In this document: one piece after another, positions 38,843 to 47,201 of the stretch
Numbering within the stretch: position 1 is the first letter of the stretch
Layout: each line of letters begins with the position of its first letter
Assembly (NCBI GenBank): GCA_017457305.1
Contig: JAFTHP010000004.1
Span: 1,084-65,083 of the forward strand
Direction of reading: 5' to 3'
Source of the DNA: Clostridia bacterium
Lineage (GTDB): Bacteria > Bacillota > Clostridia > Christensenellales > CAG-314
DNA length: 64,000 nt
The notes under the pieces: generated by a model
Seen by the model: the letters and a program-made list of their open reading frames with translations, nothing else
Told to the model about the DNA's origin: nothing
The model's database searches: none
Position numbers and translations under genes: made by a program

Positions 38843-39019
38843 ATGGCAAAGAAATCTACAATGTATCAACTAATGCGCCAATCGGAATTGATGGACGACG
38901 ACGGCATGGACTTGTGCGAAGCACAGCGTCAAGATGACCGTTCGGATGCAGAAAAGTTCAAGGAAAAATACAAGGATTTTTACACAGATATCAAAATCAA
39001 CATACGCGAAGATTGGTAA
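38843..39019 (+). CDS. small acidic hypothetical protein
   Basis: 58 aa from ATG 38843. It has a strong AAGGAG SD and its own terminator. Confidence 0.55.
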   Translation: MAKKSTMYQLMRQSELMDDDGMDLCEAQRQDDRSDAEKFKEKYKDFYTDIKINIREDW

Positions 39020-40508: not shown

Positions 40509-41162
40509 ATGGCAGTAAACGTTCTACTAAACTACTACAATTTTGACGAATCGTGGGCAAAACCCCACTTGGAAAAGCTACTTGTTGGCAAAAAGGTGCT
40601 AATCTTACCGCTGGCATTTAGACAAATTCAAGCGTGGGATAACGACAGTTTTTTGTCCATCTACGGCAAGGGCGGGGAAAAGTACGACAACATCATCAAG
40701 CCATTTTTGGCGTATGGCATAGATGAAGGTAGCATTGCTTGGCTCAATCCCTTTGACGACAATCAAAACTATACCGCAATGGTTCAGCAAGCAGACGTGT
40801 TGTTTTTCACCGGTGGTATGCCCGAAAAAGCTATAAGAAGAATCATGCAAATGGGCATTGCCGATGCAGTAAAAAAGCACCCCTTTGTTATGGGTGCAAG
40901 TGCGGGCGCTATGTTGCAACTGGAAAAGTACCACATCACCCCCGACGAAGACTACCCCAGCTACGGCTTGTGGCGTGGACTTGGGCTTGTAAAGGGCTTT
41001 GGCTTGGAAGTTCACTATCTAGCCACCGACATCCAACAACAATGCACAGCTCGTGCAGTCAAGGACTACAACTACCCCGTGTACCAAATGTGGCACCAAG
41101 GTGGTTTGCTAGTGGTGGACGGAAAAATCACAATTATGGGACAAGTTGAAGTAGTCAAGTAA
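40509..41162 (+). CDS. S51 (peptidase E-like) family protein
   Basis: 217 aa. Motif VLFFTGGMPE...VMGASAGAM. Confidence 0.7.
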   Translation: MAVNVLLNYYNFDESWAKPHLEKLLVGKKVLILPLAFRQIQAWDNDSFLSIYGKGGEKYDNIIKPFLAYGIDEGSIAWLNPFDDNQNYTAMVQQADVLFFTGGMPEKAIRRIMQMGIADAVKKHPFVMGASAGAMLQLEKYHITPDEDYPSYGLWRGLGLVKGFGLEVHYLATDIQQQCTARAVKDYNYPVYQMWHQGGLLVVDGKITIMGQVEVVK

Positions 41163-41312: not shown

Positions 41313-41348
41313 AAAAGAGCAAACACAATTGTGTTTGCTCTTTTTTTT
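41313..41348. terminator. bidirectional terminator
   Basis: GAGCAAACAC-AATT-GTGTTTGCTC flanked by A4 and T8 runs. It serves both the S51 gene (+) and the paralog array (-). Confidence 0.85.
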
Positions 41349-41355
41349 GTTCATA

Positions 41356-41802
41356 TTAACCAATAATTTTGTGTTTTAGCTGTGTAAATTCCTCTTCGCT
41401 AAGTGCGCCGTTATCGTACAATGTCTTTAAGTTTGCAATGCGTTCTAGGTCGGCATTTGGCAACTGTTGTGGTTGTGGTTGCGCCAATTGCGGATCGAAG
41501 TCGGCATCCTTCATGCATAGCAATATGATGCCTGCAATTTGGTTTACAAGCAACAAAATTACAACCTTCCAACCAAGGGAAATGTCGTCGGCACGCTTTG
41601 CATTGTTTACAAGCTTGAGCGCCTTGAAACCAAACCCAACAGCTAATCCACCAAAAGCACCGTAAGCAATAAACATGATTAATAGCGGTACAGTCATTTC
41701 TGGGTCAATAAACATGGGTATTAGTAATATCGAAGCAAACAAACACAGGATAAATCCTGATACAATGCTAAGGATAATAAATACTTTACATGCAGTTTTC
41801 AT
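41356..41802 (-). CDS. small 3-TM membrane protein with SHOCT-like C-terminus (paralog 1)
   Basis: 148 aa: MKTACKVF, 3 hydrophobic helices, RADDISLGWKV...LLCMKDADF, a Q/P linker and LERIANLKTLYDNGALSEEEF. Confidence 0.85.
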   Translation of the reverse strand: MKTACKVFIILSIVSGFILCLFASILLIPMFIDPEMTVPLLIMFIAYGAFGGLAVGFGFKALKLVNNAKRADDISLGWKVVILLLVNQIAGIILLCMKDADFDPQLAQPQPQQLPNADLERIANLKTLYDNGALSEEEFTQLKHKIIG

Positions 41803-41816
41803 ATCGTTTTTCTCCT

Positions 41817-42275
41817 TTAGAAGGGGCGATCATTTAGGATTCTATCCTTTTGTCTGTCGTATTCTTCTTGTGTGATGATGCCATCGTCTAGCATAGCCTT
41901 CAATTTGGCAATGCGTTCTAGGTCGGCATTTGGTTGAACTGTTTGTCTTTGTGGTTGGGCAAGTTGTGGATCGAAGTCTGCATCCTTCATGCACAGCAAC
42001 AGTATGCCAGCAACTGTGTTTACAAACAGCAAAATAACAACTTTCCAACCGGTGGAAATATCGTCAGCGCGCTTTGCGTTGTTGATTAGCTTCAATGCTT
42101 TAAAACCCAATCCAACAAATAGACCACCAAGTATTCCATAGATTACAAACAGTACAATACCTGCTTCAAATCCGTCGTTAGCGATGCCCACAATCAAAAA
42201 TATGGATGCAAGTAAGCAAAGAATAAATCCGCTTACAATGCTGATGATAACAAAAACTTTACTTGCAGTTTTCAT
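41817..42275 (-). CDS. small 3-TM membrane protein with SHOCT-like C-terminus (paralog 2)
   Basis: 152 aa from ATG 42275. It is very similar to paralog 1, including identical 26-nt DNA blocks. Confidence 0.85.
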   Translation of the reverse strand: MKTASKVFVIISIVSGFILCLLASIFLIVGIANDGFEAGIVLFVIYGILGGLFVGLGFKALKLINNAKRADDISTGWKVVILLFVNTVAGILLLCMKDADFDPQLAQPQRQTVQPNADLERIAKLKAMLDDGIITQEEYDRQKDRILNDRPF

Positions 42276-42323
42276 AAAAATGCTTCCTTGATAAAAAATT
42301 GAATAGGTCAACAAAGGAACTGA

Positions 42324-42836
42324 TTAAAATTGGTATGTATCAAAAAGAATATCCTTTTGTTTGTCGTATTCTTCTTGTGTGATAGCGCCGCTATCGTATA
42401 GTTCCTTTAGTTTAGCAAGACGTGTGCTAAGTTCATCCAAATTGCCGCTAGCTGCTGGAGCTGCAGATGGTTGACTGGATGGTGTGTAGTAGCTTTCGTT
42501 AGATGGAGAGTAGTCGCCTTCGCTGCTTGAGGAGTAGGAGTAGTATCCATCAAAGTGTTCGTCTTTTAGGCAGAACAACAAAATACCTGCAATCAAGTCT
42601 ACAAGAAGTGTAGCAACCTTCCAACCAGTTGAAATATCTTGTGGAGATTGTGCGTCTTTAAGTTGTTTGTTTACTTTGGAACAAATAATTATAGTAGCCA
42701 ATCCTAGAATGATGGATGTAAGGCCAGATGATAGAAGAGCTTGTTCGCCAGAAGCGGCAAGAATAACTCCGCCAAGAGCGTTAAATACGCCACCAATAAT
42801 ACCAATAATTAGAAAAATTTGTGTTGCTTTTTTCAT
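42324..42836 (-). CDS. small 3-TM membrane protein with SHOCT-like C-terminus (paralog 3)
   Basis: 170 aa from ATG 42836 (SD AGGAGG). It has a long S/Y/P-rich linker and ends LAKLKELYDSGAITQEEYDKQK. Confidence 0.85.
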   Translation of the reverse strand: MKKATQIFLIIGIIGGVFNALGGVILAASGEQALLSSGLTSIILGLATIIICSKVNKQLKDAQSPQDISTGWKVATLLVDLIAGILLFCLKDEHFDGYYSYSSSSEGDYSPSNESYYTPSSQPSAAPAASGNLDELSTRLAKLKELYDSGAITQEEYDKQKDILFDTYQF

Positions 42837-42914
42837 AAAAAATCCTCCTGTTGCAACTTTTGATTGCAAAATAATATAAACACGCAGTAAATCTGCAATT
42901 GTTTTTTTTGTGTG

Positions 42915-43406
42915 TTAAAAGTTGTACTTGTCAAAAAGGTCGTTTTTAAGTTGTTTGTACTCTTCTTCCGTTATTGCTCCCATATCGTACAATTCCTTTA
43001 GTTTGGCAAATTGTGTCATATAGTCGTCGCCGTTTCCCGTTACTGTTTGTGGTGGGATATATCCGGGGAAGTCTTCATCCTTGATGCAGAACATCAATAT
43101 ACCTTGTACAAGTCCAACAAAAATAAGTGTAATAATTTTCCAGCCTGTTTTGATATCGCTAGCGCATTGTGCCGCCATAAAGTGCTTGTATGCAAATATT
43201 GCAATAATCAGGGAAATTGCGCCTTCAACGATGTAGACAATACCAACAATGCTTTGTGCTTCTTCTATTTCCAAGTTGAGCAATGTGGCAATTGTGATAA
43301 CGTCTTCGTAAGTATCGCCGCCAATCATAACGGCAAGTCCTTCTAGCATTACAAGGCCACAGCCAACCATGGCAATAATCAATAATACTTGTATAGCTTT
43401 TCTCAT
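42915..43406 (-). CDS. small membrane protein with SHOCT-like C-terminus (paralog 4)
   Basis: 163 aa. This is the most divergent membrane part. It keeps DIKTGWKI...MFCIKDEDF and FAKLKELYDMGAITEEEYKQLK. Confidence 0.8.
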   Translation of the reverse strand: MRKAIQVLLIIAMVGCGLVMLEGLAVMIGGDTYEDVITIATLLNLEIEEAQSIVGIVYIVEGAISLIIAIFAYKHFMAAQCASDIKTGWKIITLIFVGLVQGILMFCIKDEDFPGYIPPQTVTGNGDDYMTQFAKLKELYDMGAITEEEYKQLKNDLFDKYNF

Positions 43407-43423
43407 AATTCACCTACTAGATA

Positions 43424-43981
43424 CTAAAAGGTTAGTGGATCTTCGGTGCTTTGTGTTTCACCTAGAATTTTTGCCTTTTTGTAGTCAAATTCTTCTTGTG
43501 TGATGGCACCCATGTCCAACAGTTTTTTGAGCTTTGAAATTTGTTCCAAGTCGTTGTTTTGACTAGCTGGTTGAGCTGTCACAACGGGAGCACCCTTTGG
43601 CAAGTAGTCCTTGTCCGTCATGCATAACATAATTATACCGCTAATAAGGTTGCTAAATAGTAGAACAACAACCTTGAAGCCTGTGGAAATATCACTTGCA
43701 CGTGTTGCATTGTTCAGTTTTTTCAACCCAACAATGGATACGATTAGGGAAATAGCACCAAATACAACAAAACTAATACCAAAGATAAGGAAGGTTGTTC
43801 CAAGAACAAGCCTTTGAATATCTGGGTCGGTAATAACTTCGCCATTGATGTTAACTTCGCCACCAGAAATTGGTGCGTTAAATGCCACAATACCAACCAC
43901 GGTAAAGATAAGTCCCATCAGCACAAGTGCTGCACAGGATACGATTGTCAAAATTAAAAATACTTTTGCTGCAGTTTTCAT
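43424..43981 (-). CDS. small 3-TM membrane protein with SHOCT-like C-terminus (paralog 5)
   Basis: 185 aa from ATG 43981 (SD AAGGAG). It has a first loop of about 30 aa and ends ISKLKKLLDMGAITQEEFDYKK. Confidence 0.85.
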   Translation of the reverse strand: MKTAAKVFLILTIVSCAALVLMGLIFTVVGIVAFNAPISGGEVNINGEVITDPDIQRLVLGTTFLIFGISFVVFGAISLIVSIVGLKKLNNATRASDISTGFKVVVLLFSNLISGIIMLCMTDKDYLPKGAPVVTAQPASQNNDLEQISKLKKLLDMGAITQEEFDYKKAKILGETQSTEDPLTF

Positions 43982-44024
43982 TGTAAATACTCCTTGGTAG
44001 CCAAGTTCAATGTACAAGCAACTT

Positions 44025-44061
44025 GGTTACCTTTTGATATATTATATATCAAAGGTAAACC
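44025..44061. promoter_or_regulatory. long imperfect palindrome overlapping the array promoter
   Basis: GGTTACCTTTTGATATAT-T-ATATATCAAAGGTAAACC. The arms are complementary except for a 1-nt register shift. Confidence 0.5.
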
Positions 44062-44070
44062 CTTTGTCAA
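44041..44070 (-). promoter_or_regulatory. sigma-A-type promoter of the paralog array
   Basis: On the minus strand: TTGACA, 18-nt spacer, TATAAT, about 55 nt upstream of ATG 43981. Confidence 0.6.
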
Positions 44071-45127: not shown

Positions 45128-45604
45128 ATGAAATGTATGTATTGTGGCTGTGAAGACAGCAAGGTAATAGACTCACGTTCCACCGAAGACGGCAAAAGTA
45201 TTCGTCGCCGTCGCGAGTGTATCAACTGCGGCAAGCGTTTTACCACCTTCGAAACCATCGAAATTGTACCTTTTTTGGTAGTAAAACGTGATGGAACAAG
45301 ACAAAGCTACGATCGCACCAAGCTAAAAAAAGGTATTTTGCGTTCTTGCGAAAAGCGCCCCATCAGTATGGCGCAAATCGACCAAATTGTGGAAAGCGTG
45401 GAAAAACAACTGTACAACAGCTTGGAGCAGGAAATCACTTCCAGCAAAATTGGCGATTTGGTAATGGAAGAACTAAAACCATTGGACGAAGTTGCCTACA
45501 TCCGTTTTGCGGCGGTATACCGTCAGTTCAAGGATAGTGCAACCTTCTTTGAGGAAATGTCACGCATTTTTGGTCAACCACCAAAGGGAAAGAAAAAGAA
45601 ATAA
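45128..45604 (+). CDS. nrdR: transcriptional repressor NrdR
   Basis: 158 aa. Zinc ribbon MKCMYCG...CINCGKRFTTFE and an ATP-cone domain. Confidence 0.95.
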   Translation: MKCMYCGCEDSKVIDSRSTEDGKSIRRRRECINCGKRFTTFETIEIVPFLVVKRDGTRQSYDRTKLKKGILRSCEKRPISMAQIDQIVESVEKQLYNSLEQEITSSKIGDLVMEELKPLDEVAYIRFAAVYRQFKDSATFFEEMSRIFGQPPKGKKKK

Positions 45605-46629
45605 TGAAGTATATTTTGCAACACTACAGCAAATACCCACAAATGCAATTGCAGGATTTTGTCAAACTGCTTTACCAAGCAAATTTTGGTTGCGAGCATA
45701 TTTTCAGCGACAAAATGGTGGGTTATATCGATAGCGAAATGCAACAATGCCAGTGTAGTAGCGCTCCCTTGTTTGAACAAATTAGCGACGAATATTGTAG
45801 GGTAGATTTGTCTGCATACAAGGCACTTGGTGGAACAAGCCAAACGCTTGGCAAATGTATGCGTAACGTTCACGCATCGGGCACCAAGCAGGATTTGTGC
45901 AACCAACTGGACAAACTGTTGTTGCTAATTAAGGAGGGCACAATCAAGCTAGACTACCACCAAGCAGTAGAGCAAATTGAGTGGTACAAACAGCAAGGTT
46001 GCCCCGCTATCCATCACAGTCAACAGTATCGCGACAGTTACCATCCCCACTACAGGGTGGTGTACACCAAGCAAGCAATGCTTTTGACTGCTATGGTTCA
46101 AATTGAAGGCAAGCTAGCACAGGGCAAACCTATCGTTGTAGGCATGGACGGTCCTTGTGGCAGTGGAAAAAGCACCTTGGCACAAGTGCTATCACAGCAT
46201 TTATCTTGCCCCATTATTCACGCAGATCACTTCTTTTTGCCGCCAGAGCTTCGCACAATGCAACGTATACAAGCCGGGCAAAATCTTCATTGGGAGGCAT
46301 TGTTGCCAGTAATCCAGCAGGCAAAGCAAGGCAAGGACTTTGTGTACCAAGTGTACAACTGCCAAACCAATAGCTACGTAGATAAGCAGTTTAGTGCCGC
46401 TAGTTGTACAATAGTGGAAGGTAGCTACAGCCTTGTAGAACCGTTGCGTCACTTGTACGACGTAACAATTTTGTTGCAAATAGACGCTGACAAACAACTG
46501 CAACGCTTGACCAAACGTCAAGGAAATATTGAACAATTTGTAAACAAGTGGATTGTTTACGAACAATATCATTTGGACAAACTTCCCCCTTGTGATATTG
46601 TTATTGACACCAACGTGGAGGCACTATGA
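45604..46629 (+). CDS. two-domain protein: unknown N-terminal domain plus uridine-kinase-like P-loop domain
   Basis: 341 aa. Walker A GMDGPCGSGKSTLA in the C-terminal half. The start overlaps the nrdR stop (TAATG). Confidence 0.6.
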   Translation: MKYILQHYSKYPQMQLQDFVKLLYQANFGCEHIFSDKMVGYIDSEMQQCQCSSAPLFEQISDEYCRVDLSAYKALGGTSQTLGKCMRNVHASGTKQDLCNQLDKLLLLIKEGTIKLDYHQAVEQIEWYKQQGCPAIHHSQQYRDSYHPHYRVVYTKQAMLLTAMVQIEGKLAQGKPIVVGMDGPCGSGKSTLAQVLSQHLSCPIIHADHFFLPPELRTMQRIQAGQNLHWEALLPVIQQAKQGKDFVYQVYNCQTNSYVDKQFSAASCTIVEGSYSLVEPLRHLYDVTILLQIDADKQLQRLTKRQGNIEQFVNKWIVYEQYHLDKLPPCDIVIDTNVEAL

Positions 46630-47201
46630 GAAATTTGGAACAAGAACTAAAACTGTCACTAGACAGAAGACAATATGACCTTCTTCGTCAACAAGCGGAC
46701 ACTTTGCCAACGCTACAAACCAACCACTATTTTTGGTCGGATGGTATGAGCGAAAACGAAATGGTACGCCTTCGTGAAAGAGATGGTGTGTTTGTGCTGT
46801 GTTACAAAAAGCGTATCAGCAACACCGACGGCATCACAGTTAGTGACGAAAGGGAAATGGAAATTGCACCTGACTTTGCCAACAAGATGATTCAACAAGG
46901 CATATCCTTTGAAACTCTCAAAAGCACCGTTGGCGTAAACTACGAAAACAATCTTAGTTACGTTGGCAAATTAGATACCTATCGCACCAAGTTTATGTTG
47001 GAAGATTGGTGTATCGAACTGGACCAAAATGCCTACTTTGATCAAGTGGACTACGAGTTGGAGTGCGAAAGCCGAAACGTAGAGCAACTTTCCAAGCTCA
47101 AGAGCTACCTTTTTTATACTTTTGGCATTGTACCCAAGCAATCCATACCCAAGAGCCAACGCTTTTTTGAACAGGTATTCAGTAGCAAAACAAACAAGTA
47201 A
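46626..47201 (+). CDS. CYTH-domain (triphosphate tunnel metalloenzyme) protein
   Basis: 191 aa. N-terminal ExExK signature (EQELK) and acidic strands such as YELECE. ATGA overlap with the upstream gene. Confidence 0.65.
   Translation: MRNLEQELKLSLDRRQYDLLRQQADTLPTLQTNHYFWSDGMSENEMVRLRERDGVFVLCYKKRISNTDGITVSDEREMEIAPDFANKMIQQGISFETLKSTVGVNYENNLSYVGKLDTYRTKFMLEDWCIELDQNAYFDQVDYELECESRNVEQLSKLKSYLFYTFGIVPKQSIPKSQRFFEQVFSSKTNK

Follow-up and report, generated by a model that had tools for sequence, protein, structure and literature searches.

A chromosomal tandem array of five SHOCT-tailed membrane proteins in a gut Clostridia bacterium: possible surface-facing envelope proteins with cassette-like strain variation

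The window analysed here is a stretch of 64,000 nucleotides from the Clostridia bacterium assembly GCA_017457305.1 (contig JAFTHP010000004.1, positions 1,084 to 65,083). On its minus strand, at 41356-43981, lie five co-oriented paralogous genes for small membrane proteins that end in a SHOCT domain. They form a co-transcribed, non-enzymatic, chromosomal and non-mobile set, whose gene order is kept and whose variation between strains is localised and cassette-like. What might such a set be for? Our tentative reading, to which we give a probability of about 40%, is that the genes encode abundant, co-expressed envelope adaptor or scaffold proteins that face the surface and are under diversifying or balancing pressure from an outside agent. 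We do not read the array as an enzyme, a transporter or the cargo of a mobile element.

The ORF (open reading frame) listing, taken with ATG starts, gives the genes in transcriptional order as copy 5 (43424-43981, 185 amino acids), copy 4 (42915-43406, 163 amino acids), copy 3 (42324-42836, 170 amino acids), copy 2 (41817-42275, 152 amino acids, strain-variable in its presence) and copy 1 (41356-41802, 148 amino acids). The gaps between them, in the same order, are 17, 78, 48 and 14 nt, and an AGGAG-like Shine-Dalgarno sequence, read directly from the sequence, precedes every start codon. Public gene calls on eight independent metagenome contigs match the gene lengths. The five proteins are clearly paralogous: their membrane cores alone score z = 14-58 against composition-preserving shuffles, the most distant pair in the array is recovered by BLASTP at E = 4e-12, and repeats between the copies are detectable at the DNA level too. 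Over their full length, the other four copies are 65, 38, 34 and 48% identical to copy 1.

All five proteins share one architecture. Hydropathy gives three transmembrane (TM) segments, with a basic loop (loop 2) before TM3 and an acidic KDxDF motif after it, followed by a linker and the SHOCT tail. In copy 2, hydropathy merges TM1 and TM2 into a single hydrophobic stretch of 56 residues; the AlphaFold2 model of this copy (mean pLDDT 89.5) has helices at residues 2-32, 36-66 and 75-94 and a low-confidence linker. Two segments are specific to each paralog. Loop 1, between TM1 and TM2, has 5-7 residues in copies 1, 2 and 3, 22 residues of acidic character in copy 4, and 24 residues with an NGEVITDPD core in copy 5. 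The linker is Q/P-rich in copies 1 and 2 and a 44-residue S/Y/P-rich stretch in copy 3, and copies 4 and 5 have shorter, P-containing linkers that are distinct from each other. The proteins carry no catalytic motifs. Lipobox-like tetrapeptides occur in the middle of TM1 in copy 5 (IVSC, residues 13-16, 43934-43945) and in copy 4 (MVGC, residues 13-16, 43359-43370), and an ortholog of copy 4 carries MISC at the corresponding site. Lipoprotein processing of copies 4 and 5 is unlikely, because the helix runs ~17 residues past the cysteine and this cysteine is not conserved in the family.

The C-termini of all five copies match the Pfam SHOCT model (PF09851) at 34.1-40.2 bits, against a gathering score of 27. 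On the minus strand, the domain spans 41365-41445 in copy 1 (residues 120-146, 34.1 bits), 41835-41918 in copy 2 (residues 120-147, 38.9 bits), 42345-42422 in copy 3 (residues 139-164, 40.2 bits), 42936-43007 in copy 4 (residues 134-157, 36.7 bits) and 43463-43546 in copy 5 (residues 146-173, 35.0 bits). In each case the match stops 2-12 residues short of the C-terminus. Residues D130, G132, E137 and E138 are invariant across the five copies, and AlphaFold2 models the SHOCT of copy 2 as a helix-turn-helix (115-130 and 136-148) with pLDDT 96-98. SHOCT is a widespread bacterial domain with no function assigned to it, and most model organisms lack it (Eberhardt et al., 2013; PMC3581485). The array belongs with the known SHOCT-tailed small membrane proteins, such as those combining PLDc_N or TM2 with SHOCT: its products are small (<190 amino acids), have a membrane module and no catalytic domain, and carry a tail of ~28 amino acids, no further than 50 residues from the C-terminus, in which two predicted amphipathic helices flank a conserved glycine. 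However, its membrane module is neither PLDc_N nor TM2; a cut-off of E<=1 brings no match to PF13396 in the five copies, and ten relatives have none even at E<=10. It also differs from other SHOCT proteins in being a five-gene tandem and in having a SHOCT that is predicted to be extracytoplasmic, whereas a 2024 study of phage-shock-protein (PSP) systems predicts an intracellular one (PMC11237479).

The signals for transcription are compact. The array promoter at 44041-44070 on the minus strand (TTGACA, 18 nt, TATAAT) agrees with the sigma-70 consensus at 12/12 positions, and both its -35 and -10 hexamers are kept in L089, a syntenic sister species, and in two strains of the window's species, L091 and L004. 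At the other end, a bidirectional hairpin terminator (41313-41344), with a 14-bp stem and a loop of 4 nt, lies between a run of A and a run of T. Promoter, terminator, short gaps and individual Shine-Dalgarno sequences together point to a single transcription unit. An earlier note on this DNA had described the five minus-strand genes with these lengths, gaps and ribosome-binding sites, their shared three-helix architecture with a basic loop, a SHOCT-like C-terminus, and one promoter with one bidirectional terminator; the gene calls, the hydropathy and structure model, the profile search and the signals just described bear it out on each of these.

Several smaller features accompany these signals. 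An imperfect palindrome, ACCTTTGATATAT-A-ATATATCAAAAGGT (44030-44062, minus strand), has the -10 box of the array promoter at its centre and is shared by the strains. A role for it as an operator is doubtful: it overlaps the -10 box but is not kept in the sister species. In the 78-nt gap between copies 4 and 3 (42837-42914, minus strand), a weak 5-bp hairpin is followed by a T-rich stretch (42897-42883), which might attenuate transcription of the distal three genes. No Rfam element is found in the array region; the lone sub-threshold match coincides with the terminator hairpin, and a riboswitch or small RNA was dropped on this account. In strains L004, L006, L007 and L091, the terminator loop holds a non-coding insert of ~340 bp (6935-7285 in L004, 5772-6188 in L007 and, inverted, 6020-6346 in L091). 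The insert is rich in ATATCGA-like repeats, and the version in L091, in the opposite orientation, is 80% identical; it looks like a small mobile or invertible element, similar to a miniature inverted-repeat transposable element.

Of all the results, the variation between strains is the most informative. Contigs from other samples, which match the window at 97.5-100% identity along 7-12 kb, served for the comparison. In the lineage at 97.5% (L004, L006, L007), copy 5 has 17 amino acid changes, and every one falls within residues 34-63. This allelic cassette in loop 1 (43795-43881, minus strand, codons 34-63) shows 36 differences from L004 within its 87 nt, and the gene's other 470 nt show 9; its synonymous divergence (dS) is 0.82 and its ratio of nonsynonymous to synonymous divergence (dN/dS) 0.62, whereas in the rest of the gene dS is 0.04-0.10 and dN is 0. 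Public data contain two alleles of the copy 5 loop, in clusters of 7 and 24 members, and both keep an NG..ITDPD core. A second cassette covers TM1 to TM3 of copy 3 (42567-42818, minus strand, codons 7-90). Compared with L091 it is 52% identical in amino acids, with dS 0.86 and dN/dS 0.49, whereas codons 91-170 are 100% identical, with dS 0.02 and dN 0. At least five public alleles of copy 3 (P0050, P0052-P0055) show the same division, being divergent from TM1 through loop 1 and TM2 to loop 2 and identical in linker and SHOCT.

Whole genes vary as well. Copy 2 is missing from strains L091 and L092, and a metatranscriptome contig shows the same copy-2-lacking junction, with 41803 joined to 42294. 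One public protein, P0029, is a hybrid of copies 2 and 1, as unequal crossing-over would give. Part of the alternative copy 3 allele is 79% identical to copy 4 in DNA, which hints at gene conversion. Because dS reaches ~0.8 and dN/dS 0.5-0.6, the cassettes are old alleles or imports rather than the product of recent positive selection in place. A diversity-generating retroelement was considered and rejected, since the differences in the cassettes are of all base types and there is no template repeat. An apparently altered copy 1 in contig L001 (157 amino acids, no Pfam on record) is really a run of N in the scaffold.

These comparisons change one part of the earlier picture. The earlier note saw a conserved core with hypervariable exposed segments, and among the latter linkers that differ completely between copies. 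Between paralogs, this description of core and linkers stands. Between strains it does not: the per-segment diversity within ortholog groups is lowest in the linkers and SHOCT tails, which are the most conserved parts. The diversifying surface family proposed there is therefore still plausible, but its support at the population level comes from loop 1 and the first two helices and not from the linkers.

How old is the array, and how widespread? The core family is confined to gut-associated Firmicutes. Among bacterial and archaeal contigs sampled at one genome per species, 80 genome loci were found, all in gut metagenome-assembled genomes of Clostridia or Bacilli, with taxa that include Clostridia, Oscillospiraceae, Christensenellaceae, Lachnospiraceae and uncultured 'Bacilli' such as Candidatus Coproplasma. 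The sequencing runs that contain the array locus itself are gut, faecal and bovine gut metagenomes. When family genes within ~6 kb of each match are counted, 70 of the 79 loci in other species have one copy, eight have two in tandem and a single locus has three, so that the window's species is alone in having five. The NCBI label for the array orthologs is 'SHOCT domain-containing protein' and nothing further. The sister species (GCA_965353495.1, L089) has four genes in the same order, namely copy 5-, copy 4- and copy 3-like genes and one copy 1/2-like gene, between the same flanks (purC-nrdR on one side; an S51-like peptidase gene, pdp, coaE and polA on the other). A more distant relative has two copies in a different gene context. 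The array is thus not invariant among relatives, with four copies in the sister species and four or five in conspecific strains, and the counts show a lineage-specific tandem expansion.

The individual copies are long-lived. Copies 1 and 2 have diverged to a dS of ~1.6, so their duplication is old. In the sister species, orthologs with the loop type of copy 5 occur (P0059), and the copy 4 ortholog there (P0056) is 63% identical. As a whole, the array proteins are 46-63% identical to their sister-species orthologs, compared with 66-94% for seven flanking genes. Interspecies dN/dS of the array genes is ~0.12-0.24, a value that is indicative only, as dS is saturated (1.2-2.4). These figures suggest that the whole genes are under purifying selection yet change faster than their flanks. 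Since the paralogs are long-lived and individually maintained in a kept order, and since each keeps its own loop 1 and linker across species, they would seem to be specialised rather than redundant.

Does the membrane core belong to a family of known function? In a search of 1.84 billion representative proteins, a profile built from the five cores picks out a family of 465 cluster representatives at E<=1e-3; 47 of them reach E<=1e-10. Its members are 53-418 amino acids long and have in common an N-terminal MKTAAKVF, a basic loop and a TM3 of the form LLFvNLIAGILmLCmKDeDF, giving the family signature MKTAAKVFLIIG...[variable]...ALKKLxxAxxxxD..GWKvvtLLFvNLIAGILmLCmKDeDF. The family includes 2-TM forms of ~70-85 amino acids. 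In the best 150 relatives, ~30% have a SHOCT (by a hidden Markov model built from the family's own tails) and 17 an N-terminal zinc ribbon; in a Pfam scan of 145 representatives, 43 match SHOCT, 27 match DUF4064, 16 match zinc ribbons and 11 match Tetraspanin. The 16-17 relatives with a ribbon before the same 3-TM module recall the small Firmicute membrane proteins that combine Zn_Ribbon_1 or DZR with TM segments, from which the array proteins differ in that none of the five has a ribbon and that SHOCT occurs in just one ribbon relative, P0171.

The core itself is elusive in domain collections. It has no significant match in Pfam or NCBIfam in any of the five copies, and ten distant relatives compared with Pfam at E<=10 yield nothing significant. 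The defence models of PADLOC-DB v2 give zero matches at E<=1 for all five copies, and matches in PHROGs cover the SHOCT tail, none of them reaching the membrane core. A profile search of PDB sequences with the core found nothing, and Foldseek found nothing above noise in PDB (best E = 3.4) or BFVD (best E = 0.69). The core family is therefore uncharacterised, unnamed and without a Pfam or NCBIfam model, in line with the earlier note, which could not place the membrane domain in a characterised family.

Its nearest named neighbour is DUF4064 (PF13273), matched by 27 of the 145 representatives at E<=0.1 across most of the profile. The best of these, P0209, scores 31.2 bits (E = 2.6e-7, profile positions 4-90 of 102) against a gathering score of 32.1, which no family member attains; the five array proteins have no match at E<=1. 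The membrane core is most likely a divergent relative of DUF4064, whose members are likewise small Firmicute membrane proteins of similar size and taxonomic range with an N-terminal MK-basic start. As DUF4064 is itself without an assigned function, the relationship would give a name and not a mechanism. Tetraspanins (PF00335) offer an analogy only. Their first three helices have the same topology as is predicted for the array proteins: the N-terminus is inside, the loop on the outer side is small, the one on the inner side is short and basic, and TM3 leads to an outward module. Sub-threshold Tetraspanin matches (profile 4-104) occur in copies 4 and 5 (E = 0.0099 and 0.0024) and in 11 of the 145 relatives (best E = 7.9e-7). 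However, the array proteins have neither the fourth helix nor the large second extracellular loop (EC2) with its CCG motif, and reach 16-18 bits against a cut-off of 32.1; Foldseek retrieves no tetraspanin above noise (PRPH2-ROM1 at E = 8.1). The matches most likely reflect compositional and architectural resemblance over TM1-TM3.

On which side of the membrane does the SHOCT tail lie? By the positive-inside rule, the basic segments flanking membrane helices stay in the cytoplasm, and the loop charges of the array were read in this way. In the five copies, the N-terminal tail has ~2 K/R, loop 1 has 0-1 K/R and 1-6 D/E, loop 2 has 1-4 K/R, and the segment after TM3 is acidic. The family averages follow the same trend: 2.0 K/R in the N-terminal tail, 3.3 K/R and 1.5 D/E in loop 2, and 1.4 K/R and 3.1 D/E in the 12 residues after TM3. 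In the zinc-ribbon relatives, three TM segments follow the ribbon in 17/17, so the C-terminus should lie opposite the ribbon, which is presumed to be cytoplasmic; P0171, with its ribbon, also ends in a SHOCT. Together, charge bias and ribbon fusions suggest an N-terminus inside, loop 1 outside, loop 2 inside and a C-terminus outside. The array proteins are thus quite probably C-out, which would place linker and SHOCT on the outer face of the membrane.

Two kinds of relatives complicate the topology. P0096 (237 amino acids) and P0228 (327 amino acids) consist of two 3-TM modules head to tail without a linking helix; for lack of this extra helix the second module must be inverted in the membrane, which implies that the module can take either orientation. 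In P0096, the charges of the second module are shifted to match, with 1 K/R in its loop 2 (loop 2') and 5 K/R in its C-terminal tail. This hints that modules may pair antiparallel. As for the 2-TM relatives, a re-entrant hairpin, put forward to reconcile the topologies and suggested by the invariant Pro22 and Gly26, was dropped when AlphaFold2 gave a continuous helix from 2 to 35.

The strongest alternative, unlikely in our view, puts the tail on the other side. The proteins would be inner-face membrane scaffolds whose cytoplasmic SHOCT docks to the inner leaflet, as has been proposed for SHOCT-like domains in envelope-stress systems of the PSP type, with a stabilising or recruiting role, and the strain variation would be tolerated drift of lipid-facing helices in TM1-loop1-TM2. 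Intracellular, membrane-proximal SHOCT-like domains have been inferred before (Ravi et al., 2024; PMC11237479). Moreover, SHOCT is frequently found C-terminal to cytoplasmic SPFH/band-7 domains, 2-TM relatives bearing SHOCT exist, and the SHOCT itself carries ~5 K/R, so that a count over the whole tail weakens the charge bias. However, with this arrangement the basic loop 2, like the N-terminal zinc ribbon that 17 relatives carry, would end up outside the cell, and the acidic loop 1 would face the cytoplasm. Neither PspA, PspC, LiaF (or LiaI-LiaF-TM), Toastrack nor regulator genes are present among the called and clustered neighbours in the window's species and at the 79 other loci. Furthermore, drift does not account for sharp-edged cassettes of dS 0.8 in genes that are otherwise 98-100% identical.

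Rather less probable is a neutral origin of the pattern, in a fast-evolving and weakly constrained family whose mosaics, free of diversifying selection, are by-products of gene conversion among the paralogs and of homologous recombination that involved divergent relatives. The dN/dS of the cassettes, below 1 (0.49-0.62), agrees with this, as do the resemblance of the alternative copy 3 allele to copy 4, which suggests gene conversion, and the hybrid P0029, which suggests unequal crossing-over between copies 2 and 1. But the two cassettes are the sole such outliers in the 7-12 kb compared, where the flanking genes are uniformly 97-100% identical, and both affect the same structural region. Both alleles of copy 5 retain NG..ITDPD and recur across many samples, and dN is 0 in the remainder of each cassette-bearing gene.

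The remaining alternatives turn on the genomic surroundings. The array sits between housekeeping genes, as had been claimed: the purC flank is confirmed at 211 bits and the pdp flank through its Pfam domains. The neighbour at 40509-41162 (plus strand), formerly called an S51 peptidase, is S51-like only, scoring 22.8 bits against a 23.9-bit cut-off with a match to the C-terminal two thirds of the profile. Clustering of 524 neighbour ORFs from the 79 loci reveals no conserved neighbour; the largest cluster is a generic ABC transporter at 10 loci, beyond which only housekeeping genes emerge. Searched by tblastn, the core has no match among 50,697 phage records or among 72,556 plasmids, and IMG/VR likewise contains none; no plasmid context was found for the array. 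The G+C content of the array (0.37-0.41) is barely under that of its flanks (0.42-0.49). On these grounds, the absence from the phage, plasmid and IMG/VR sets and the near-normal G+C content, an origin from a mobile element was rejected.

It is possible, if improbable, that the array is an orphan immunity island, in which five small membrane proteins that confer immunity to competitors' membrane-active bacteriocins or contact-dependent toxins have accumulated and diversified like other immunity genes. Small multi-TM proteins, tandem paralogs of variable copy number, allelic cassettes in the membrane domain and a gut habitat with dense competition would all suit such a function. Yet the flanks contain no bacteriocin precursor, ABC exporter, toxin or secretion gene, and none is conserved at the other loci. 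There is no plasmid match, and the paralogs have kept an order that predates the divergence of the sister species. Most genomes have just one, well-conserved copy of the family, in which the N-terminal motif and TM3 are invariant; a housekeeping role in the envelope would fit this better. A pore-forming, holin- or channel-like protein, with the conserved Asn/Gly TM3 lining an oligomeric pore gated by the charged C-terminal tail, is highly improbable: the small size, the 2-3 TM segments, the charged hydrophilic C-terminus and the polar Asn conserved within TM3 agree with it, but there is no endolysin, spanin or phage gene nearby (the neighbours are purC, nrdR, the S51-like peptidase gene and pdp), no holin family matches in Pfam or PHROGs, the core family is missing from phage, plasmid and IMG/VR collections, and five constitutively promoted holins would be lethal.

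How, then, might surface-facing adaptor or scaffold proteins work? On our favoured reading, each protein would insert with its N-terminus inside, loop 1 outside and the basic loop 2 inside, and TM3 would lead outward to a linker and SHOCT hairpin on the outer face of the cytoplasmic membrane, beneath the cell wall. Conservation is highest in loop 2 and in TM3, where an Asn, a Gly-Ile and a Cys are near-invariant; this part could serve as an assembly core in which the co-expressed paralogs associate, each with its own kind or with the others. An exposed periphery would consist of TM1-loop1-TM2 and the outward linker-SHOCT tail, and strains would exchange it as old allelic cassettes while copy 2 is gained or lost. 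An outside recogniser of the cell surface, such as a phage, a membrane-targeting bacteriocin or a host antibody, may drive both processes; cassette exchange and the gain or loss of copy 2 are the pattern expected of envelope proteins that are recognised by an outside agent.

Several points weigh against this reading of the array as surface-facing envelope proteins. Support for expression is limited to metatranscriptome contigs, which are too fragmentary to define transcripts. The topology draws its support from the charge bias and the fusions, while SHOCT-like domains are predicted to be generally intracellular, with docking to the inner leaflet (Ravi et al., 2024; PMC11237479). The short 2-TM relatives model as a plain helical hairpin, because of which the N-terminal motif cannot lie on one and the same side in every member. 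Hetero-oligomerisation of the paralogs is pure inference, and in the sole published test a SHOCT peptide failed to oligomerise a reporter (PMC3581485). No phage, defence or bacteriocin gene lies near the array, and no experiment or direct functional association exists for the core family or for SHOCT. Finally, selection-free import of divergent DNA would give the same picture, and the dN/dS of both cassettes is below 1 (0.49 and 0.62).

A bolder proposal is that these are chromosomal surface-exposed membrane proteins, diversified by recombination, that manage recognition by phages, membrane-targeting bacteriocins or host antibodies, their paralog-specific outer loops and outward SHOCT tails being either recognised or themselves recognising. 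We consider it unlikely.

Two further features of the neighbourhood are given for completeness. At 45128-47201 (plus strand), three genes with overlapping stop and start codons encode NrdR, a 341-amino-acid protein with a C-terminal CoaE/PRK-like P-loop kinase domain, and a CYTH (triphosphate tunnel) protein. This chain, an unusual partnership for NrdR, is kept in all strains and in the sister species. Between coaE and pdp, at 38843-39019 (plus strand), lies an acidic ORF of 58 amino acids without a Pfam match; all strain contigs, as well as the sister species, have it among their gene calls.

If the array were merely a fast-evolving membrane protein family, the gain would be confined to better annotation. 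Naming the core family would improve the annotation of many gut metagenome-assembled genomes. Cassette exchange and the gain and loss of copies are typical of loci that interact with phages, competitors or the host, so that the locus might be used as a strain marker or considered a candidate phage receptor. Moreover, the five natural variants of one simple architecture, combined with a clear prediction of topology, make the membrane side of SHOCT and its binding partner testable. If the recognition proposal were true, it would provide the first functional and topological assignment of SHOCT, as an extracytoplasmic, membrane-proximal module, and it would define a new DUF4064-like family as envelope organisers analogous to tetraspanins.

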